This document shows, piece by piece, positions 38,323 to 62,897 of a DNA stretch of 64,000 nucleotides. The stretch is from assembly GCA_965153455.1 (NCBI GenBank), contig OZ234493.1:3348001-3412000 (forward strand). The letters run 5' to 3'. The DNA comes from Sphagnum compactum (lineage: Eukaryota). Each line of letters opens with the position of its first letter. Positions within the stretch are counted from its first letter, which is position 1. Made by a program: the position numbers and the translations under genes. A model generated the notes under the pieces. That model saw only the letters and a program-made list of their open reading frames with translations, made no database searches and had not been told where the DNA came from.

Positions 38323-38358
38323 TTAAAGTGAGCTCGATTCACTTCTTGGGAGTTTCGG

Positions 38359-41300
38359 ATGGCACCCAAGAAGAACCGTAAGCAAGCTCAAGAAGCTATG
38401 TTGGAAGAACCCATCGAAGACCTAATAGTTCCGCCAGAGTCAATTGGGGAGGAGGAACCAAGAACCCGAGAGGACCAAGATGAGCCCGAAAGTGAAGAAG
38501 AGCAACGGAGCTCGGTCCTATTCATCCCGGAACAATTGGAGGTCCTCCTCAAAATGAATAGGCCCAACTTCGGTGAGTTGGTGGCAGCCCTCAAAACGAG
38601 GACCTCCAAAAATGAAAGGTTTCAACCGGCCAAGTCCGGGAACTTCGATGGTGCCCGTGACCGAAAGGTTGTGGATGCTTGGCTTGCCGAGATGGATGAT
38701 TATATACATGCCGCCAAGGTTGGACGGCATTCGGCCGTGGAGCTTGCCCAATCCTACTTGAAAGGGTATGCCGCCACATGGTGGAGGACAATGTGACAAG
38801 AGGAAGGGAAGAACCATGGCTACACTTGGGAATTCTTTAAGGAACGCATCGAATCAGAATTTGTTCCAAGGAATTCCGACTACATCTCAAGGTGCAAACT
38901 CCGCGACCTTGTGAATGCCACAAATGGCAACTTGCGGCAATATGGGAGGGCTTATTCGGAACTCATGCTCGAGATCCGGCACATGCATGAGCTGGATCGT
39001 GTGTGCCAATTTGTGATGGGGCTTCCAACTTGGGCCAAGCGTAAGCTAAAGGAAAATTGGCCCTCCTCACTATCTGAAGCCATCATGAAAGTGGAAGGCT
39101 TCTCGGATGTGAGGCGGGGTGAAAAATCCAGGTTCAAGAAGGACAACAAGTTCCTTCACAAGAAGCCAAGGCATGAGGGAGAATGGAACCGAGGGCAAGG
39201 AAGCCCAACGAAGGATAAGCCCAAACAATTCCAAGGCGCGGGGTTCAAACCCAAGGGGAACTTTGTGAAGAAGGGGTTCATTTCAAAGCGAGCCAACTAA
39301 AGGGAGATTTTGGGGTGAAACCCAAAGGAGCTTGTTTCAATTGCAACGAAGTGGGACATTACTCCAAAGATTGTCCCAAGTCCAAAATGGGGAATGGGGG
39401 CTTTAAAGTAATTGCCCTCAATGCCAACCTAGCCCAACTTGAATGCAATCGACTTATCTTCTTAAAGGGGAATATTGGTAAGCGGGATGTGTTATGTATT
39501 TTGGACACAGGGGCTTCTCACAACTTCATAACCCGGGAAAGTGCCGAAAGGATGGAGCTCCACTTGGAGGAGCTCAAGGCACCCATTGAGGTGCACTTCG
39601 CGGATGGGGTTCCCCATCCCACAACGTTACAAGCAAAGGAAGTGCCTTTCTAACTAGGAAATTGGAGAGGAAAGGTGGACTTGTTAGTTTCCACCTTGGG
39701 TGGAATGGATTGCATTTTGGGAATGGAGTTCATCACCCAAAATAACGTGCTCATAGAAGGGCACAATAGGCTAGTTAAAATACCATCTAAAAGTGGGATT
39801 GTGCGGGTGAAGGCACACGAATTGCCTTGTGCGGGTGGACCAACCATCCACTTTATGTTAAAAAAATCCTGGGAAAGAGAATGTGTGGGAACCTATGGCA
39901 TGATGTGTGTTATGCAGGTGTTGGACGAGTATGAGCCCAAGGAAGCCACCGAGTTGGTGACTTCCTCCAAGTGCATAAAGAGAGGTTTGGAAGAGTTTCC
40001 GGATGTGATGCCCGAAGAGTTGCCCAAAGACCTGCCCCCGAGAAGACGAGTTGATCATGCGATCGAGGTGATGCCGGGAGTGGCACCTCCCACCAAGGCC
40101 CCATATCGAATGAGCCATGAAGAGTTGAAAGAGCTTAAGGTTCAACTTGAAGAACTCCTCGCAAAAGGTTATATCAAACCAAGTAAATCACCATATGGGG
40201 CACCCGTCCTTTTTGTTCACAAGAAGGATGGGATGTTGAGGATGTGTGTGGATTATAGAGCCCTCAACAAGGCAACGGTGAAGAACCGGTATCCTTTACC
40301 TCGAATCGATGATCTATTTGATCGTCTCTCGGGAGTTAAGGTGTTTAGTAGGATTGACCTACGTTCGGGGTATTACCAAATTCGGATTGCGGAAGGGGAC
40401 GAAGAAAAGACTACATGTTTGTGGTCGTCTACATAGACGACATTTTGATCTATAGTGGCTCCTTGGAGGAGCATGAGGAGCACCTTCGCAAGGTTTTCCA
40501 AAGGCTAAGGGAAAACAAGTTGTATGCCAAGCTTGAGAAGTGCGAATTCGGGGTGGCGGAAGTGGACTTCCTTGGACATAAGATAACTCAAGAAGGTTTG
40601 AAGATGGATGATCACAAAGTCAAGGCAATTTTGGATTGGGAACCGCCTAAGTTGGTTCTGGCCTTGAGATCCTTCTTAGGATTGGCATCCTACTATCGTA
40701 AGTTCATCAAGAACTTTGCGAAGATAGCCGCACCTTTGACAAACCTCTCAAAGAAGTATGCCATCACTTATGAATGGGAAGAAGCATGCAACAAAGCCTT
40801 TGAGACCTTGAAGGGCATTTTGGTGAAGGCGCCGGTGTTAAAGTTGCCCAACTTTGACAAAGATTTTGAAATCCATTCCGATGCTTCCGACTTTGCAATT
40901 GGAGGAGTCCTAGTGCAAGAAGGAAGACCGGTGGCATTTGAAAGCAAGAAAATTGAGTGAGACGGAGCGAAGGTGGCCAACACACAAGAAGGAAATGTGG
41001 GCGGTCATACATTGTCTCAAGACTTGGGGCCATTATATAGGCTCCAAGGATGTGGTGAATTGGACCGACAATGTGACCTTGAAGTACTTTGCCACTCAAC
41101 CCAAGTTGTCATCAAAACAAGTGAGATGGCAAGACACATTGGCATTGTTCAATGTGGACATTCGGCACAAACCCGGGAAGGAGAACATAGTGTCTGATGC
41201 ATTGAGCCGAAAACACCAACTTAGAGTGGTGTATGTGGGAGAGACGGAACTTCAAAGAGAAGTTCGACTAGCAAGCTACCGGGATGCATTTGCCAAAGAG

Positions 41301-42716
41301 GTGAAGCAAAACATTCAAAATGGAACCAAGTCCCACTTCCATTTGCGAAATGGATTATTGTGGTACAAACAAAACCGATTCTATGTGTCGGAAGGGAAGA
41401 TGAGGGACACCATCTTGAAGGAATGTCATGATGGACCGCTTGCGAGCCATGGTGGTGCAAAACGCACCACAACATTCCTAAAGAAGTCCTACTATTGGCT
41501 TAACTTGAAGGATAGTGCGGAGGAGTATGTGAAGACTTGTTTAACTTGCCAACAAAATCGAACCCTCAACAAGAAGCAAACGGGTTTGTTGCAACCTTTG
41601 CCAATTCCCGAAGGGCCGTGGGAAAGTGTGTCCATGGATTTCATAGTAAGCTTGCCCCCATCAAAGGGATTTGATGTCATCATGGTGGTGGTGGATCGAT
41701 TTAGCAAGATGGCACATTTCATTCCCACAAAAGATGAGGCCATGGCCCAAGAGATAGGTAGGTTGTTCTTCACATATGTCTTCAAGCACCATGGCCTCCC
41801 AAAGGACATAGTTTCGGATCAAGACCCGAAGTTCACAAGCAAGTTTTGGCGAGCCTTGTGGAAGCGTATGGGGTCGGAACTCAAGATGAGCACTTCGTTC
41901 CGCCCCCAAACTAATGGACAAACCGAAAGGGTCAACTTGGTGATCCAACAATTCTTAAGGAATTATGTGGCGGCGGACCAACAAGATTGGGTGGACCATT
42001 TGGAGTTAGCCGAGTTTTGTTACAACAACTCGGAACATTCCACAACTGAGTCCACCCCATTCCAAATGGTGACGGGCAAGTCACCAATTGTGCCCATGAC
42101 TTGGGCAGCACAAGGACAACCCCCAGGTGATGCAAGTGAGGAGGTGTCAATGGTCACACAACTTGATGAAGAAAGGCGGCGCTTGTGGGAGGTGGCCAAG
42201 GCCAATTTGGAAAAGGAGCACAAAAGGTACAAAGATTTTGCGGACAAGTCCTGACGAAAGGTGAAGTTTCAAGAAGGGGACGAAGTGTGGTTGAACATCA
42301 AAAACTTTTAGTTGCTAGAAGGTTTAAGTCGTAAGTTCTTGGGCCCATATGTGGGCCCATTCAAAGTGTTGGAAAAGAAACTTTCCGACAGTTATAAGTT
42401 AGAACTACCGGAAAATCTTAGAGTTCATCCCACATTTCATGTTTCTTTTCTGAAGCCAGTCTCCCGCGATGCCTCAAGGCCTAATCGAGAGCAAAACTCA
42501 AGGCCCCCACCTGACTTGGTTCATAATGAACCAGAGTTTGAGGTGGAGGCCATGCTCAAGTTAAGGCAATTAAGAGGACGAGAACGAGAATACCTAGTTA
42601 AGTGGAAAGGATACCATGCAATAGAGGCTTTTTGGGTGACTGAATCCGATATGGAACATGCCCAAGAAGCCATAGAAGAATTTCACACTAGACCGGCAAA
42701 GAAAAGACGTAGATAG
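38359..42716 (+). pseudogene. gag-pol polyprotein (Gag, CCHC knuckle, aspartic protease, RT, RNase H, integrase, chromodomain), inactivated
   Basis: Motifs CFNCNEVGHYSKDC, LDTGASHNF, YIDD, SDASDFAIGG, integrase zinc-finger H..H..C..C, SMDF / VSDQD / GQTER, and FEVE..YLVKWKGY. Premature stops at 38794, 39298, 39651, 42252 and ~42309, a frameshift at ~40950 and an internal RT deletion at ~40417. Confidence 0.95.
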
Positions 42717-49235: not shown

Positions 49236-50384
49236 TTGACTGACCGTGGTTCGGTATATACCGACACCAACTGCATATCTAAAAACCACCACGAAAACAA
49301 ACCGAAGATATCCTTTTTAAAGTGGGCCCAGACATCGAACCACGTTTCCTAGCCCCTCGCCGCTCCGACTGGATTTGGACACTGGACCCCAGGTACCCAG
49401 GATCAGGTCAAGGTCAGCCCCCCTCCCCCGCTCCCAAATTCGGGAGTCTTGAGGAACAAGTTACAAGATTGCACTTTCTTGCCGACAGAATCCCCGCCTT
49501 GTACTGCAATGTGGTCTCTATATGAACATTCCATCCGGCACCGCCTCACACAGCCACCTGCTGCGCCGGATCCGGACACTCGACCCCACCCAGGATCCCA
49601 TTTCCACGTACCAACTACTGTTGCCTTCTACTGCATTTTCCTGAAAATTGAAGTTTGTGATTTTCCCTCGGGCTTTCCCCTATTTTTTATAAATTTAATT
49701 TGTAGTGACGTGGGCGGGTGTTTAATTTTGCTACTACCGTAACTGTCAGTTTCAGTTTTCTTTATATTTTGGAATTAGGGAACTAGCGGCTTTGATTTTA
49801 TTTTCCAACAGCAGATCAGAATCAAATAATTGTCAGTTCTAGTTATTTCAAAAACCTCAAAGCGCCAGTGGTGTTCATGAGAGAACAGGTAAAGAATTAG
49901 GGTACCCAGGCCTGTAACTGTCGCGGCCAAAAATGAGGCGATGGAAAAAGTTTCAACCAATCATGAGGTCTACAAAACAAGGTTAGCGAGTCCACCCCAG
50001 TAATTGCTTTCAACCTTCATCTTCCCAAACGCGCCCTCCTAGGCGCACAACACTAAGCGAATCAAGCCAACTCAAATTATGCAATAATGGTGGATAATCA
50101 TATTTTTTAGAGGTACTAAGTACAATTCTATAGATGAGCAAAACGATGATTGCATTAGTAAGAAAGATCTTTGGGAAAGGCACTAAAAAGTCATGTTCAA
50201 ACATTTCTTCAAACCTTTTTTTTATGTTTTTTAATCAAATTTTCCATGTTGTAGTAAGTTATGTATGGAAGTATGCATACATTCTAGGAACATTTCAGGG
50301 TAAACACCCCATCTAAATAATTTCAACAACAAAAGGTAAAACCATTAGAACTTCTCTTTTATTTAAATTGAAATTTTTTTGGAA

Positions 50385-53300
50385 TCTGCGTAATTCTTCA
50401 GATAATGATTCAAGAATTGCATTGTTGACTTCATCAACGTCAGTATTTTTGGGGGCCATAATGCTGCGTTGCATAAGATACATGGTATCTCCAAAGTGGC
50501 GTTGGTGATCCGGATAGATGGTTTGGATGAATCCTCTTAAGTTGCAATCTTTTGTTGGCAGCCTCATATGGGACGGAATCTTGATCCAATCTGGATCGAC
50601 ACCTTCTTCTTCTACAATGGCAGGAAGACTGCCGTCTCCAACGTTCAACACCCCTTTGGCAAACTTTCGCTGCTCTTCAGAATTGGTTGCCATGACTCGC
50701 ATGTTGATATGAAGACGAAGAATCATAACATGTTGCCAAAGATGCGATCGAGGCAACGAAACACTAACAATGTCTTCTCGTCCTCCCTTGGGAACAACAG
50801 GCAGGATTTGTCGAAAATCCCCACCAAGGACCATGGTTTTCCCACCAAAGATCTTCTCAATTGTCTGTGCATCATCCAATTGCATCAAATCACGCAGGGT
50901 CTGATCAACAGCTTCCAAAGCTCGGCGATGCATCATCGGTGCCTCATCCCAAATGATCAGATCAACTTTACGCACCAACTCGGCCACTTTCATCTATTGT
51001 GTGATGTTGCAAGTCGACTCATCGTGCAGATCAATCAGAATCTTGAATCTTGAATGGGCGGTTCTGCCGTCTAGAAGTAACAAAGATGCAATTCCTGATG
51101 AGGCAACTGCAAGCACAATTTTTCCTTGCGCTCATAAACGGGATAGAAGCATTGTCCAAACAAATGTTTTGCCGGTTCCACCACTACCATACACAAAGAA
51201 CAGTTTGCCATGTTTGTTTGTCACAGCATTCAAAATAGTTTTGTATGCGCTGCGCTGATCATCATTGAGCCTATTTTCTGCATCATCTGCATCTGTGGTC
51301 AATGAATGCTGATCATAAGCCAGCTCTTCTTGGACCAATCGGTCTCCTCCATGAACAGGAGGGATGTAATTAAACTTGGGAAGTGTTGGAAAATCTTCCA
51401 GGCGGTGTCCGTTGCGGATGAAAACCTGATCGATCTCATATAATGCACAATCCTTTAGCGCATCCTCAGAAAGGGTAATAGTTGGATCATCACACTCGTA
51501 GCGTGTCATTGCCTCAATGTCATCGCTCAAAGACTCCCAATGTGCATCCCATAGCTGTCTGGGATTCGTCACCTCACAAAACATTAGCATGGAGGCAAAC
51601 ATGTCACGCAACTGTCGTCCTGGGGCCTAAAGACCGACTTCTTCCAAGGCTTGATGCCATTCATTGTCGTCTGTAAGTAAACCCATTGCAATGCATACAT
51701 CTTTGAATGTGTTGTGCTCTGTGCCATCCACTATCCGCAAATGTTCGTAAGATGTGGCACCTTTGACGCAGTTCAGCAGCATCCGCAAATAATAACGTTC
51801 ACCCGATGTCGAATGTGCATAATACATGCGACCAATGGCAAACCCTCTCTTGCGCATTATCCATCGTTTCGACCACATTCCCTTCGATGGCATTGTCGTT
51901 ATCGCGTGAGATCTTAACAGTTGCACGATCATGTCCTTTGTAAACGTACTTGAATAGATACTTGACTGCACGAATGTTGTTGCAAACCTCAACATTGATG
52001 TGTGCATCGTATTTGGTCGACAAATAAACATTGTGCGGTACCACCCAACGATTGTCCAATTCAACGCCGTGAACCAAAACTGTGCGCCTCGTATCTCTGC
52101 ATCGATAAATAGGATATCCGTTTACATCCGTCATCGTCTTAAATCGGAACTTGCGTGGATATTGTTTTTTACATTTGCCATCTTCCATGCATGGGGCATT
52201 TGGAAACACAGCTCCACATGGACCATGCATCATGCATCTGGCAACCGTCTCGTGGGCCAACCTTTTTGTCTTTGGATTCGGAAATTCAACACTAATCATG
52301 CGGTCTACATCCTCGACTGTGCGTGGCTTGTAGTCTTCGGCAAAGAAGATGAGAATGTGTGCATGTGGCAGCCCACGCTTTTGAAACTCAATGACATAGA
52401 TTCCCGCAATCATGCGTCCCAGAATATGCTTCGTGTGAATGTCATTGATCAACTCCTTTAGTTTGATTTTGAACACTTAGGTTACCAAATCCAGTCGATC
52501 CTGAGGTTGTTGTCCGGGCAGCAAAGCTCTCTTGATCTTAGGTCATTAGGGATTACAAGTGAATGTAACAAATGCATCCGAGCAACGAGCCCATCTGCAG
52601 ATTGCCATGGCATCTTGATAATTCTGAACCATGTGACGTGGACCTCCTATGAAAGAAGATGGCAGAATGATCCTCTCTCCGATGGCAATTACGTTATTAT
52701 CACCTGCAGCGATGGCGTCCTGAAGGCCTTGATAGAGATTTGCACGAAGTTTTTTTTGATTTAGGCGCAGATACCTCAAGCGATTTTGTTCGACAGCCGC
52801 ATCAGCATTCACAATGTATTATTGCCTCAATTGGTCACCCCGAAGCAACACAATGCCATCAGTGTCTCGATGTTGAAGTCGATAACCGTAAAATTTGGCC
52901 ATTGTCATATTGTGAGGCTTTCTATGATGCTCAGATTCTTTCGCATGGTCTTCATCTAAATCCGCATGAGCATCCTGCAAAACAACACCATTGAGCGGAA
53001 TATTCGAATGCCATCCATCCTCACCGTAAGAAAATAGCAACGGATAATGTAGAGCCATGTATCCCACATGTAGCTCGGAAATGAGCTGAAATGGGCCACC
53101 TTGCTGAGCAACGACGACGTCACGCCTGTCTATAACCTCATAACCATCTCCTACCATCAATGCAGTGATTTCATCGGCCATCGGCACATTGTATCGGCGG
53201 GCATCCTTTGTTCGAGAGGCAATGAGACGCAATTTCAGATCCATGGGAGCACCTTCTATTGCATCATATCCCTTGCCATTTTGAACACTTTGACATAGGG

Positions 53301-54438
53301 ATTGATATTGTATATCATGGTCAACAACCAATCCAACATCGTTGGATCAAGCAATGGCATAACGGCATGGCGATTTTGACGTTCGCTCTCCGTATCATGA
53401 ATGTACAGCTATGCAAACTATGGACGTTGTCCTTCGGTAGGACACAAGGATCCAATTTTGTGATAAAGCTCACCTTGAATGTAAAAGGAGTATGGTCCAA
53501 TGCCTCTTGTTATTGACTCATCAACTTTGGCGCCGAGCGAAGTGAATGCCAACACTGAATTGAACATGCGAATCTAATTTCGAAATTTGATAGCACTTCT
53601 CTCTTTGCTGGTTAAAAGAACTTCTAGCTCTTGCGATGTTGCAGGAAGACTCGGCAACAGAATTTTACCATTCTCCCAACATAGGGAAAACTTTGGGTTG
53701 CTGTTGCTCGACTTTGCTAATTGTTCTTTAATCCACATTTTCGCATTGCAGAATCCATAGATTGTGTCCATTTCTCCACAATCCCATCGTGTCGGGGCTG
53801 ACGCGTCTTCGTCTGCAAACAATTGCAATGCGTCATTGCGAAAAAAAGGATGTGCACGTGCTGCTGCTTGTCGTACGGTTCGTCGTTCTCGACGTAAACA
53901 ATTACTTCGCTCTTGTGGCGTTTTAGATGGCCCGACTGACTCTACAAACAATTGCAATGCGTCATTGCCAAGAGAAGGCTGTGCACGTGCTGTTGCTTGT
54001 TGTACGGTTTAAAGTTCTCGAGGCAGACGATTATCGTTCTTGTGGCGTTTTAGATGGCCCGGCTAACTCTGCAAACAATTGCAATGCGTCATTGCCAAGA
54101 GAAGGTTGTGCACGTGCTGCTGCTTGTTGTACAGTTCGTCATTTTTGACGTAAACGATTACTTCACTCTTGTGGCGTTTCAGATGGCTTGGCCAACTCTA
54201 CACGTTGCCTGGCACGCCGTTCTCTCTGCAGGCGATTGCAACGTTCACGTGCAGATTTCGACGTGGCTTGATTGAATTCTGCTGGAACATTAGTATGTGG
54301 AACATGATTTTCCAAAAAGTCAGTTTGCTCGTCATTCTGCTGAGCTTCTGGGTGCTGCCAAAGGGCCACCAAAGCTGCCAAAGCACTACCATGCTGCGCA
54401 ATGAATGCACGCATACGTCCTTGTATGTCTTCGGGCAT
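50385..54438 (-). mobile_element. Helitron Rep/helicase (RepHel) gene, degenerate and 3'-truncated
   Basis: Rep motifs FVTFTCNP, YVIEFQKRGLPHAHIL (HUH) and YLFKYVYKG. PIF1-type helicase motifs YGSGGTGKT, IIWDEAPM and LGGDFRQILPV. N-terminal zinc-finger-like region and ~127-bp coding repeats at 53815-54250. Multiple stops, frameshifts and deletions. Confidence 0.93.
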
Positions 54439-54503
54439 TGTGGAGAATATATGTTGAGTTTGTTGCTAATATTGATATCAAAATGGGGGGGGGGAGGTTT
54501 TTT

Positions 54504-54759
54504 CTCCTTCATTCTTGTCTGCTGGTGCCGTATTTTCTCTTGGAAGTATTCTCACAGGCGTCATCACAGCAACACGGGTAGCATCGATCGCGATGAGGTT
54601 TTCGTTCCCAAGAAGAAGGAGATTGCTGTTGTAACAGGAGGAGGATGGGGAGTCACAGAATACCTTCAACATCCACTGGGTCGGATCTTTATGATCGCTC
54701 TCATGCTTCTGTTAGGATGGCCTTTCTATTTTATTTGCAACGTTTCAGGGAGAAAATAC
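54504..54759 (+). pseudogene. FAD2: Fragment of an omega-6 (delta-12) fatty acid desaturase gene
   Basis: [10 protein letters not shown](frameshift)[25 protein letters not shown]...YLQHPLGR...[17 protein letters not shown], the second His-box region of FAD2. No N- or C-terminus. Confidence 0.88.
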
Positions 54760-57247
54760 TTACTGCTTGGGGGCTACTCTGAATGAAAGCATCAGTAGGG
54801 CATTGCCAAGACCATATGAGGTAACATAGGAGCAAGCTCTTTCATCTGAGGCATAATGCATTCCCCTTCAAACACAATTGCAATGTTGTGTACTGCATGA
54901 AAGCCACATTGGGTAGAGACCTTAAGTCAAAGAAACATGTACCAAGAAAGACTGATGAAAATACTTCATGTGCATGCTAATGTGATGATAAGATTATATT
55001 CCACAGCTTACAAAGGACAGCACACAACACAACCATTGAGAATCAAACTTCCTGAAAAGCTCTCAAAATCCAACCTGACCATGAGAACCCTATGCAAGAA
55101 CATAGAAGAATACCTGTTGCTAGAGATGGTGAACCACCATCTGGGTAGTTTTCTTTTGGTGTGGGCTGATGTTGTTGCTGGCAAAGTGCTGCTCATTGTC
55201 ACATTTGACTGAGTGCCACTTGATTTTGCAACAGCTGCTGCTCATGGCCCCCCCTAACCATAATAACTTTTAAAACAGCCTACTTTGGTCAAATTCACAA
55301 AAAAGATGTCCCAGTTCATAACCCCACATTTGGAAGACTCATAACACAATACAATAGCCCACCAGCACTACTATAACACTACATGGGGAATACCACACAC
55401 TGACTATTTCAAAGTTGCTTAACAATTGTCTCACTTAACACTGAACCTTTAATTTCTCATTCCTACTTCACTAAATGCAAGGATACAGAAGCAAATTCCT
55501 TCTGCTATATGTTATCAACAAACATTCACAACTGCAACCACTGAAAAAGTCATGAGCTTGAAACAGGCTAAGTTGGAGAAGATGAAGAAAGGGGAGAATG
55601 GGTGGCTGCTGCAGCAAGAGGAGGATGGGGAGTCACAAAATACCTTCGTCCCCCTCCGGGACTGATTGGCCATTTGTTTTATGTCGTCGTTAATTTCTTG
55701 TTCGAGTGGCATTTGTGATGACAATCAACAAGAGTCAAGGTTAGACATTGAACAACGTTGGGGTATGTTTGCCGTCTCCAGTCTTTTCCCATGGTCAACT
55801 GTATGTTGCTATCTCACGGGTCACAAGCAGTGCAAACATCAAGATTTTCAGCGGCCAGGGTCCTGATGGATACATGCGGAATGTGGTATATAGAGAGGTT
55901 TTGGAAATGTAGTCTGTAGTTGTAATTTTGTAATATGTACCGTCAAATACACACACACCTATGCATTAGGCACGGGGTTTAGGGTTTAGGGTTGTAGGCT
56001 GCAAGAGGTCTATATCTTTTATTGACTTTTTAGCCATAGCGGCACTATAAGTAAATATATCACCCCGCATTTGTGGACATGATGCCCGTAATAATTGCAT
56101 AACTTGATGGGCTTTTGTATGCACATATTATGTAATTGCATACTTGGTTTTTTTAATTGCTTTGCCTAATGCTTTAGGGCCTGCTTGCTACTATGACCGG
56201 CCCTAGTCAAAGCCGAAGGGATAAGAAGTTGTTTGGGCCAAAAAAATTGTTTTTTCAATCTATGTTTTGTTTTGTTTTTTTTTCTTTGACGCTCAATCTA
56301 TCATTCCATCATTCCAACCTTTACTTCCTTCTTTCCCCTTTTGAAATTCCTTATAAGACCAAACCAATATTGTGCTTTATTTAAGGACTCATGTTTTCAT
56401 GATTCATCGTAGATGAATTGCAAAGCGTAGCTTGGGCCTTGGGCTCCAAAAAAAAATCTATTTTTTCGCTTATTAGGTGGGCCTTGGTTGGGCCTCTCTC
56501 CAAGCAGAGCCCAAAAAGGGGCGTAACACTAGCTTATCATTGCGTCCCTTAAAGTTCTGTGATATTATACAAGGAAATATGAGCCCTTAGTTCGTGCTAA
56601 TGTTTCTTTCGAAATGAATAAATAGAAAACTCACTATGTAAATAAAATATAATTGATTATGTACTCAAAAATAATCTACCAGGGTGGGTCAAATGACTCA
56701 AACACATGATCCCCAAATCTGAGTGTACCTAAGAAATTTTGTACTATATTTGAATTTTTGAGCACACCTTAATATATTCATGGATACCACTCCTCTGTAA
56801 AACAGTAAGGATCTTACAATAGCTACTACTCAAGAATGGGAGGGAAATTATGCCTACTTATAGGCTTCAGATCTCTCCTGCTCTTAAGTAGTAGGTGTAA
56901 GAACCCTCTGCTCTTATGCCTTATGATCTACCTATATGTTTAAGTGGTAGGTAAGGCCTGTGAATGGAGGTGTTAACAGAATAGGGCGCTCACCACGGAC
57001 ATTACCCATACAAGTCTTCCACCTTAGGCAATGGGTGCCTTCTTCTGATAAGGCCCCATCCAAGTGCCTTACCATGTGTAATGTGCCGACCTTTTTTTTC
57101 CATATCTAATTGCCAAGTTCCTACTCATATTGTGCACAGAATTCATCTTAGGCCCCATGTTTTGGGAATTCTCCCACTCTAGGGCTTTCTCCTACAAGTG
57201 CCCTAACTGATAGGTATAACTAGTAACATTAGTCAGATGGATTACAG

Positions 57248-59323: not shown

Positions 59324-59905
59324 CAATCATCAGTAGCAGCACCTCTGAACACATGAATTGCAGTACATGCTTAAACTAGATGGTTTTCTTGTTGCTGGAA
59401 AGAAAGCTCAGGACATTGAACCCAGTAAAACCTTTCCAGGTTTTTGTGCTTGAAGAGTAGATAGCTTTAGGACATAATGAACACAAATTCTTTGTGGGTT
59501 TTCCAAACCCATCATTCTTTTTAGCCATAGGGAGCAACCAAGCATGAAATAGTCTTCAATTTATTTCGATTTGTACATACATAGGTCATTTGATGTGCTC
59601 AATTCTTTGACCTGTGGTTGGCTACCCCAACCCCCTGTGCATGCCAGCAGACCATTGGGCCAGGTACTGAATAAGGGGGGAAGAAGGAAAAGAGAAACAG
59701 AGTAATTAGGAGCACCTGGAATTCATATTCAGTTCACACATTTTGTGGAACTTAGCTTGTACATAGGAATCTTTTAAGAATAAAGAATATTTTAAGAATA
59801 AAACAGTGGTCTAAGGGGGCATGTGTGCCTCCTAATAGCGTGGTTGGACCCTTTGGTGATAACCTTGTTGAAAACATCCTTGGTGATAGGCTCAAAACCA
59901 ACATA

Positions 59906-62897
59906 CCGTAGTGCTCACCCTAAACCCCGCAGCCCCAGAAAATGGAATTATTTTTTCCCTCCCGCAGGCAGTCCCCGCAGGCCAAATTAAGAGTTTTGCA
60001 ATCCCGTAGCATAAAGAAACAATTAATTAAGGGTCCCGCAAGGGAAAATGGCAATACCACAAACAGTCAGTACACACAGTCAGTGTCCCCCTCTATATCG
60101 TTGGGCTGGCTGAACACGGTTCCATTGCACACTTCTATTTTCCCAAATCTTTCTCAAAGGTCCTGAGGAACCCTTTGCAGCACTCCCTAGCTATTGCTAA
60201 GCGAGCGCTCCACAAGCTGAGCTGCCCTACTCCTCGTCTGCCTCTGCACTGTCAGAATCCTCTGCTGATTCGCCATCCTCATCTGATGCGCTAGATGCTG
60301 CTGCCTCATCAGCAGGGTCTGCGCTCACTGCAGCTGTTCTCTTGCGGATGCTCCTCAAGCGCATGGACAATTTGTTAGCAGGCAGCTCAAAGTCCGAGTC
60401 CCACTCTGCATCTGACGACCCGCTGCTCAACTCTGACTCTGCATCGCTGTCGTTGTCGTCATCTGCCTCCTCCTCATCCTCGGCAGGCACCTCGTTTGCG
60501 TGTGCCAGCTCTGCTACTGACGCTCGCGGCAGTTCTATCTGCAAGCCCAGTTGCGCGCACGCGGCTGCGGTCCGGTGCCGCGTCCCCTCCTCAAAGATCT
60601 GCAAGGTGCTCGCCTTGGCGTAGCCATCCAGCACGCTGTGCTGCATTCCCTTGATGCGCTCCCAGCCAGCGTAGATCCAGTGGATGCCCTCGTCCCTCAG
60701 GCGGCCGACGGAGAGGTCCAGCTTGCAGTCCTTGGGCGCGATGCCCGACTTGACCTGCTCTATCACGAGGCTTGCTGACCAGTCGCAGAACCGCTGGCGT
60801 ACAGCGTTCTTGAACGGCTTGTTGAGGACAGTACCTGCCACCTGCGCAAGAATGAATGCTTTGTCAACTCACAAATGAGTTTCTTCTTTAAACTGCATCA
60901 TGGTGAGAGGAAAAAGTAATGCTGCTCAGGCAAGGATTTGATTTCAATGGCTTGACCACAGCAACGCAAAGCAATCTCACAGAGCATTAAATGTTAGTGC
61001 AAAATCAGAGGACCAATGTAGTCAATTAGAGGAAAAATGCTATCCCTGTCAATAATGGCTACCTGAGCAACCGAGGTAGTCCCTCCCGGCACAAACACGA
61101 TGTGCATGTACGGGTGGTTCAGCTTTAGCCAGTCCCTGAATGGGGCGCCGCGGTGGACGCTGTAGACATCCAGCTGCAGCAGCGGCGGCTGCTCGCGGGG
61201 AGGCAGCAGGTCAGTGCGCTCCTCGCAGACGCGCACATAGGCTGGGTAGATAAGCTGCAGAGAACCAAATGCTATGAGTGACGATGATTTTGAAAAAAAT
61301 GTTTGTACCAGGTATCGTCCAGAATTACTGCATCCCTAGTCAATGTTGCAGCCTGCGGAGGTATAACAAAGCTATTTAGGATATTCACCTTCTCGATCCA
61401 CTCCTGCATGGACTCGAGCGTGCACCAGTGGTTCTTGGTCAAGCTGAAGACGAAGCCAGCTGCCTCAGCCTCGCTGCGCGCCTCCTTCCTAGGCAGGCTC
61501 TTCTCCCTCTAGCCACCGTAGATCAGCTGCAGCGCCAGCACAATCCCTGCGAGCGTTGTTGTGACGCAGGCTATGAGGCCACGCTTGTCCTCCTTGCCGG
61601 TGACTTGCACCTGCATTCAAAGGTTGCTTATCTCCATCGCAAGAGTTCATTAGCGCATTAACTTGCACAATTTGACCCATTTCATCTTCATGGCAGGCAA
61701 GCACGGTGAGGCTTCCCAAAAGATTAGAGCTGCACACCTGTTTCGCGTTCCTGATATCGTATGTGGTTGCCATCCCCATGGGTGTGTACCACACAAACGT
61801 TTCGTCCATGCTAAAGACGAGCTCAGGCGGAATCTTGTACAGGTAGCAGCACCATGCCATGCGCAGGTTCATCTCGTCCACTAGACGCTCACAGTCCTTT
61901 GGCAACTTCTGTGGTGCGCCTGTCGCACGCCTGCGCAGAATTCAACTGTACTTAGGTCGCTTGCACAGCAGCGGGCGCTTTCAAAGAAATGGCTGTAGGC
62001 GCCCAAAGTTCTGCTTGGATAAAGAGCACATGTAGTGGCAGAGCTGTAAACAATAAGCAGCCCAAGCTCACAAGAAATTGTGCCTGTACCTGAATGTCCA
62101 TCCCATCTTCTTCCTGAGGAACCTGCGGACAGTTGGCCTGCTTGGCCCATAGCGCTCGCCGTTCTTTTTCAGCAGGTCAGGGCGGCGGGCCTCCAGGATG
62201 CCGATCATGATGTGTTGTGTGGTGACGCTATTGATTACATTCCCAGCTGTCCTCTGGGCACAGAGAGCTTCGTAAATCTCCTTCTCGACGTCCGGTGCCT
62301 GCAGCAGCCAAAATATTTAATTTCACCATATTACAACCATTGGAAGTGTCTCTGGAAGCGTGCATACGTCAACGAATGCAAGCCAGACTTTCAGCTCACC
62401 TCTACGAAAAGGGTCATCTGATTTCAGCCACCACGGGAAGAAAAGCCAGCTTTGAGCTTGTCCTGGGCCTCTTTGGTGAGGATGAATGGACCAGTTGGGC
62501 TTTCCTTCTTCTTGAACCACCCCTTCACAGTGCTCTCGTCCAACCCCTCAAACAACGTTCTGAGGGGCCCCTCCTTCAGCGCTTTCACAGCAGGCCGCAC
62601 TTCGTTCTTGGCATGGACGGCTGCCAAGATCCTCTCAATGAGGAAGGGCTTCCACCAGTTCTTCTTCTTGTTGCTCTTTGAGGCTAGTTTCCTGCAGACA
62701 CAAGCCCTTATTAGTGTGGCTCTTCTCTGGAAGCCTGTTTTAATCTTATCAGCAGATAGGAAGCAAGAAGCTACTCTGCTCTGGAAGCCAGCTTAGATCT
62801 TGTCAGCAGATAGGAAGCAAGAAGTTAATCCTTGCCAGCAAGTGATCAGCTACAAACCAAGACATGCCTACCTCGTGAGCTTGCGTCCTGCCGCTTG
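59906..62897 (-). mobile_element. pogo/Tigger-type (DDE_1, CENP-B HTH) transposon; GC-rich, six introns, 5'-truncated and inactivated
   Basis: Exons (-): ~62897-62872, 62691-62400, 62298-62090, 61930-61738, 61610-61389, 61254-61063 and 60841-60227 splice in frame via GT-AG introns. Motifs FSMDET, GKEDKR, NHW, QLDVYSVH and VPGGTTSVAQVAG(D expected)TVLNKPFK, plus an acidic tail. Stops at 62424 and 61509. Probable terminus TA|CCGTAGTG at 59906. Confidence 0.88.

Follow-up and report, generated by a model that had tools for sequence, protein, structure and literature searches.

A GC-rich block in a Sphagnum compactum contig is very probably a dead, 5'-truncated copy of a pogo-superfamily transposon with six predicted introns

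We analysed a 64,000-nucleotide stretch of Sphagnum compactum DNA (assembly GCA_965153455.1, contig OZ234493.1, positions 3,348,001 to 3,412,000 of the forward strand), hereafter the window, in which positions are counted from the first letter. A GC-rich block at 59906-62897 carries a transposase gene on the minus strand, and we regard the block, with high confidence, as the dead remains of a cut-and-paste pogo-superfamily transposon (IS630-Tc1-mariner group) that has lost its 5' end. The element has the TA duplications and short inverted repeats by which that superfamily is structurally defined, and its family is multi-copy in the moss-like host and in related organisms. The family is an additional member of the known pogo kind, and its copies are young.

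The gene was modelled from stop-to-stop frames and the minus-strand sequence, and consists of seven exons and six introns. Read from its 5' side, it opens with a remnant of exon 1 (62872-62897), where the copy is cut off at 62888-62897, followed by intron 1 (62692-62871, 180 nt), exon 2 (62400-62691, 292 nt), which holds the NWWKP motif region and an in-frame TGA at 62426-62424, and intron 2 (62299-62399, 101 nt). Exon 3 (62090-62298, 209 nt) would encode the second helix-turn-helix-like part of the DNA-binding region, and aligns to the part of a relative, P0038, that passes Pfam HTH_Tnp_Tc5. After intron 3 (61931-62089, 159 nt), exon 4 (61738-61930, 193 nt) contains the first catalytic aspartate (SMDETF). 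Intron 4 (61611-61737, 127 nt) leads to exon 5 (61389-61610, 222 nt), with an in-frame TAG at 61511-61509, and intron 5 (61255-61388, 134 nt) to exon 6 (61063-61254, 192 nt), with the second catalytic aspartate (LQLDVYS). Intron 6 (60842-61062, 221 nt; GTAGCC...GCGCAG) precedes exon 7 (60227-60841, 615 nt), which contains the third catalytic position, a C-terminal acidic tail, and the stop codon (60229-60227). The 3' untranslated and subterminal region (59933-60226) carries short CCCGCAG-like repeats and is kept in other copies.

The spliced protein of the window copy matched a profile of 12 relatives in one single stretch (E = 1.8e-151). When the 648-amino-acid consensus protein of the family was aligned to nine relatives, seven of which are continuous, intronless metagenome open reading frames (ORFs), no indels appeared at junctions 2-6; the junctions of introns 2, 3, 4, and 5 are colinear with the relatives, and that of intron 6 with the intronless ones. 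Intron 1 falls outside the conserved parts, and its placement depends on frame continuity only. All six introns open with GT, and their acceptors are CTGCAG (three), GCGCAG (two), and ATGCAG (one); the (T/C)GCAG ending in six of six is a raw count without a chance background. In the window copy, exon GC is 0.53-0.64, GC at third codon positions (GC3) 0.72, and intron GC 0.40-0.49. The preliminary description of this DNA, made from the sequence alone, had proposed a pogo-type transposase gene with GC-rich exons, GC-ending codons, and six introns of 100-220 bp all ending in (T/C)GCAG; the gene model and the colinear relatives bear this out, with intron lengths of 101-221 nt. The splicing of the six introns is thus predicted by comparison.

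Metagenome contigs were screened using exon 7 alone as the query, which finds close copies only, and 19 loci were recovered at 84-92% protein identity to exon 7 and 93-96% DNA identity to the window over the shared part. Three of these loci hold full-length elements, namely L007 (5503-8935, 3433 bp), L002 (3511-6983, 3473 bp), and L015 (1994-5356, 3363 bp). The full-length element is approximately 3.4 kb long and ends in 26-27-bp terminal inverted repeats beginning CCGTAGTGCTCACCC, with repeats at both ends and TA on both sides in three of three cases. Among nine aligned loci, the six introns are common to the copies that reach them and are mostly equal in length; intron 1 measures 251 nt in L002 versus 180 nt in the window. 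In the window, this intron contains a 54-bp tandem duplication (62720-62827, 87% identical), and the copy number of the 54-bp unit seems variable between copies. The majority consensus of 10 copies is one open frame of 648 codons, with exon GC of 0.55-0.64, intron GC of 0.40-0.49, and GC3 of 0.73; it encodes an intact protein with a putative N-terminal helix-turn-helix region. The copies differ from the consensus by 2.3-4.5%, and C>T or G>A accounts for about 80% of these changes. Their flanks have 26-33% GC and share dispersed repeats, 70-80% identical, with other parts of the window, so the copies reside in the same kind of genome and not in an alga.

The family also recurs in other data: 20 of the 24 runs listed contain at least part of the stretch in question, and 14 DNA runs under five organism labels carry 44-62% of its words. 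Contigs were compared from three DNA runs, X3, X9, and X13 (labels A, B, and D), and one RNA run, X16. Those of all three DNA runs cover the element, at depths of approximately 30, 158-170, and 81-99 in X3, X9, and X13, against 4-6, 22-39, and approximately 20, respectively, for nearby low-depth flank contigs. This excess of about 4-7 times is a rough sign of several element copies per genome.

At its left edge, which is the 3' end of the gene, the block stops at an element terminus. A terminal inverted repeat of approximately 26-27 bp (59906-59932, minus strand; beginning CCGTAGTGCTCACCC on the plus strand) adjoins a TA target dinucleotide (59904-59905), and a joint at 59905 was found in run X9. 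The repeat is unique in the window, had no chance match in 100 shuffles, and occurs as an exact 21-mer at the element ends in 10 of the 19 loci. All 15 loci extending to the 3' end of the gene lose similarity at window positions 59894-59904, and each continues into unrelated flank. The flanks of these 15 comprise at least 11 different sequences.

The right edge is of another nature. Similarity extends as far as 62888 in the case of L007 and L002 and 62897 in that of L013 and L015, and the full copies run 412-421 bp further, through most of a 224-nt exon 1, the ATG, and a leader of approximately 214 nt to the other inverted repeat. The window copy is therefore 5'-truncated by these 412-421 bp. 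Behind 62888, unlike sequence follows in contigs of X3 (record 21) and X9 (record 30), as it does at loose ends of X13 and X16. A search for inverted repeats within the window found no pair of element ends, because the truncation removed one arm. In a 603-nt contig of X9 (record 26), 59905 is joined to 62893 with 189 other letters in between, and in X13 joints connect 59901 with 62959 and 59903 with 62956; these joints show that the flanking repeat also occurs in versions that lack the element. The preliminary description had overlooked the 5' truncation, but its extent of 59906-62897 stands, as does the abrupt return of AT-rich DNA at about 62897, with similarity ending at 62888-62897 and GC of 0.24-0.38 beyond 63000. 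An exon 1 model starting at an ATG (62927-62872) was rejected, as the sequence beyond 62897 is flank.

The few lesions noted earlier, two stops and a change of a catalytic aspartate to glycine, were all recovered, and they are specific to the window copy. Where it reads TGA and TAG, other copies read CGA and CAG, respectively, and position 61511 is changed from A to G in runs X3, X9, and X13. The third catalytic residue (codon 60835-60833) is glycine in the window copy, and the aspartate is kept in four in-frame copies, in the P0001 cluster, and in all relatives. The consensus triad comprises D284, D409, and D447, of which the second and third are separated by 37 residues (DD37D), and the three catalytic positions are invariant among 12 relatives. 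From these features we infer a likely history. The element would have inserted at a TA inside a host repeat and later lost its first 412-421 bp, probably along with about 189 bp of flank; the two stops (CGA>TGA and CAG>TAG) and the D>G change at the third catalytic residue would have been gained afterwards. The C>T and G>A spectrum is what would be expected from the decay of silenced, methylated copies. On this account the window copy could no longer give rise to a transposase, and it could no longer be mobilised because one inverted repeat is gone.

The assignment to the pogo superfamily draws on more distant relatives as well. An exhaustive HMMER search with exon 7 returned 67 proteins (E <= 0.001). 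The Pfam DDE_1 cut-off was passed by seven of ten longer relatives, and the HTH_Tnp_Tc5 cut-off by one, P0038 (23.0 versus 22.2 bits), with which the moss protein is colinear over this region. The nearest Atlas clusters of one Haematococcus relative carry DDE_1 and HTH_Tnp_Tc5 and bear Tigger-, Jerky-, and POGK-like names, which we take as a lead only. The family profile matched no solved structure, and a word-index search of exon 7 residues 1-110 against longer proteins found no near-identical annotated full-length protein in the collection. One further match, P0003, is a 204-amino-acid ORF on a 44-kb ENA contig, which aligns to exon 7 from end to end with 40% identity, begins at the same codon, and has the acidic tail and a DWDSDF motif in common with it. 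The agreement is a hint of a more distant relative whose last intron would lie at the same position.

Several results weigh against this assignment, or against a working family. None of six single exons of the window copy matched Pfam at E <= 1, and none of the four Haematococcus relatives reached the DDE_1 cut-off (13-17 bits or none, versus 22); membership therefore rests on the more distant relatives and the structural hallmarks. None of the ten copies examined is intact, all having stops, frameshifts, truncations, or mutated splice sites, so that they offer no support for present-day activity. Introns 2, 4, and 5 are complete in the contigs of RNA run X16, which also include part of intron 6, span the boundary between exon 7 and intron 6, and showed no splice joints; X16 thus supports neither expression nor splicing of the transposase gene, and its signal may be DNA carried over into the library. 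Finally, no contig among the pieces listed bridges the window copy's own two junctions.

These unbridged junctions, together with the abrupt shift of composition at both ends of the block, are also what favours reading the block as a chimeric assembly or as contaminant DNA of an alga fused to moss sequence, the former being the alternative named in the preliminary description. We consider this highly improbable. The end at 59906 is a genuine element terminus beside a TA, the end at 62897 is a truncation relative to full copies, with an 'empty' version of the site in X9, and the same family occupies at least 11 other sites in AT-rich DNA that shares repeats with the window. In addition, independent DNA runs with labels A, B, and D carry the element at depths that exceed those of nearby low-depth flank contigs several-fold. 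A multi-exon structure is uncommon among transposons, and pogo transposases have often been domesticated in vertebrates (PMC7386202); both points would suit a domesticated host gene derived from a pogo transposase. That the block is such a gene is hardly credible, given inverted repeats and TA duplications on copies at many sites, stops, frameshifts, or truncations in 10 of 10 copies, and a predominance of C>T and G>A changes without evidence of constraint. For annotation, the GC-rich block is better treated as a decayed transposon copy, neither host gene nor contamination.

The block is a compositional outlier, as stated in the preliminary description, but its surroundings are not as AT-rich as was claimed there. 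GC is approximately 0.41-0.46 to the left of the block, 0.50-0.65 at 60150-62850, and 0.24-0.38 beyond 63000; outside the block, the window ranges from 0.23 to 0.50 in 2-kb steps, with 0.411 overall when the element is left out. The element itself has 51-54% GC versus 26-41% in the flanks. Elsewhere in the window, GC3 is 0.51-0.61 in Ty3/gypsy ORFs, 0.38-0.50 in Helitron ORFs, and 0.56 in a desaturase-like ORF, so that the contrast of the transposase gene with other coding sequences is real but moderate; the earlier view of the window's other transposases as AT-rich holds to that degree (0.38-0.61 versus 0.72).

As to where the family came from, 30 of the 67 HMMER matches were looked up, within a search scope that did not include bryophyte and streptophyte-alga genomes. 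The sole named relatives among these 30 are proteins of the green alga Haematococcus lacustris; the rest are unnamed ORFs from metagenomes or run assemblies. Word-index searches also gave Haematococcus as the only organism among their named matches (9 of 9 and 12 of 14), which carries little independent weight since their seeds were Haematococcus proteins (P0081, and an alignment, A2, headed by P0097). Identity of the moss consensus to P0097, P0098, and P0081 is 36-40% over 420-545 amino acids (E values of 1e-92 to 1e-101), and to the intronless relatives 29-34%. A maximum-likelihood tree was built from 22 rows, which were hand-chosen proteins of approximately 390 residues or more, with two labelled taxa only and reference pogo families absent; in it, the moss protein forms a clade with four Haematococcus and three unnamed proteins (support 100/98). 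The branches are long, with 1.08 changes per column for the moss end branch and 0.89 for the Haematococcus stem. This grouping points to an algal affinity without demonstrating a recent transfer.

The preliminary description had inferred a relatively recent transposon transfer from alga to plant, to be checked by a phylogeny of the spliced protein. The phylogeny recovered the clade with Haematococcus, but its long branches and the lack of a close donor among the relatives searched leave a transfer, let alone a recent one, not borne out; similarity above that given by host divergence, which would mark a transfer, was not seen, the best named non-moss relatives being 36-40% identical in protein. 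The family could descend from an old plant inheritance with patchy survival, or from an invasion from an alga or another donor.

A fairly recent passage from a chlorophyte, possibly a moss-dwelling trebouxiophyte, into the moss lineage, followed by a burst and decay, would be compatible with the anatomy of the element, and we hold it to be possible though rather unlikely. In its favour, the named relatives looked up are all from Haematococcus lacustris and share the well-supported clade, the copies are young, and the element stands out from its flanks in GC and from the other window coding sequences in GC3 (0.72-0.73 versus 0.38-0.61). The acceptors ending in GCAG agree with the Chlamydomonas consensus as inferred from the relevant part of PMC7419008, and the host lists in the texts of PMC7386202 and PMC7325037 place land-plant pogo elements only in eudicots (Lemi) and Selaginella, with none from bryophytes. 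On the other side, no plausible donor was found among the relatives searched, identity to the algal proteins is low, and the tree has long branches. Little weight attaches to the apparent absence from land plants, as transposon proteins are rarely annotated in plants and the bryophyte and streptophyte-alga genomes lay outside the search; moreover, most relatives are unnamed metagenome proteins, and 37 of the 67 matches were not looked up. The land-plant acceptor consensus is approximately TGCAG/G, which the TGCAG acceptor also matches, and high GC is usual in chlorophytes, whereas the consensus introns, at 40-49% GC, are near the host value. A fuller version, in which the six-intron family came from a green alga with its introns included, could be processed by the plant spliceosome, and spread in a burst across related mosses, strikes us as similarly doubtful. 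If true, it would represent a rare documented alga-to-bryophyte transposon transfer and the first pogo lineage described in bryophytes. Literature searches on Haematococcus transposons, and on Sphagnum with Tc1-Mariner, found nothing relevant.

Compared with known systems, the moss element agrees in its main dimensions with the pogo superfamily, whose members include pogo, Tigger, Fot1, and Lemi and which is marked by Pfam DDE_1 (PF03184) with an HTH_Tnp_Tc5/CENP-B-type N-terminus. Pogo elements are described as having TA duplications, inverted repeats of <40 bp, lengths of 1.2-5.2 kb, and a DD29-56D triad (PMC7386202), and the TA, the 26-27-bp repeats, the length of approximately 3.4 kb, and the DD37D triad found here all fall within these ranges. 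It differs in its six predicted spliceosomal introns; pogo elements are described with one or two ORFs, and the word 'intron' is not mentioned in the main text of that survey (PMC7386202). The moss protein is also too divergent for Pfam detection in single exons. Its host, a moss-like plant, differs from those surveyed, as bryophytes do not appear in the host lists within the text of PMC7386202 and PMC7325037; Table S1 of PMC7386202 may list species, for example green algae, that bear on the distribution.

The best full-length matches, with the same domain order, are the Haematococcus lacustris proteins P0097, P0098, P0081 (KAJ9519827.1), and P0011 (GFH32369.1), annotated as hypothetical or DDE-1 domain proteins, which have the NWW(K/H)P, SMDETF, AQV.D, and N(K/R)PFK motifs in common with the moss protein. 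These relatives are multi-copy in the alga; they are deeply diverged from the moss element, and the likeness is known from proteins alone. A 104-amino-acid protein labelled as from a Bosea metagenome-assembled genome (MAG), P0082, clusters at 90% with Haematococcus transposase fragments, and probably represents algal sequence that was binned as bacterial.

Among land plants, the pogo-like Lemi1/Lemi elements are described from 23 eudicot species and not from bryophytes in the text of PMC7386202; they resemble the moss element in being of pogo type in a land plant, a comparison made by description only. The land-plant pogo elements listed are the eudicot Lemi in PMC7386202 and those of Selaginella and dicots in the corresponding part of PMC7325037. 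The moss Physcomitrella patens harbours the Tc1-like, DD34E families PpTc1 and PpTc2 (PMC4054914), which are likewise young multi-copy families of the IS630-Tc1-mariner group in a moss. Unlike them, the element described here has a DD37D triad, with aspartate as the third residue, and DDE_1-type relatives. Pogo elements have been reported to be rare in land plants, and a young, multi-copy family with six predicted introns in a moss-like genome widens this picture; with chlorophytes as its nearest named relatives, the family also provides a tangible case in which an exchange of transposons between algae and the mosses on which they live could be tested.

Other mobile elements and repeats were found elsewhere in the window. 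The coding region of a Ty3/gypsy-type long terminal repeat retrotransposon lies on the plus strand at 38332-42254 (Pfam RVT_1, RT_RNaseH, Integrase_H2C2, and rve), and that of a Helitron on the minus strand at 50313-53346 (Pfam PIF1 helicase and Helitron_like_N). An ORF on the plus strand at 54154-54786 carries a histidine-box motif, by eye like that of FAD2-type fatty-acid desaturases, and may be a host-gene exon or fragment; it had no Pfam match at E <= 0.001. Close to the right edge of the transposon copy, the very AT-rich segment 63186-63507 (GC 0.24-0.32) reached depths of 308, 4190, and 3572 in X3, X9, and X13, respectively, or 10-100 times those of its neighbours, and looks like a high-copy host repeat. 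Lastly, the segment 63600-64000 is made up of nested repeats of a GGCGACCGAAA-like unit, both inverted and direct, and looks like a miniature inverted-repeat transposable element or a foldback element.

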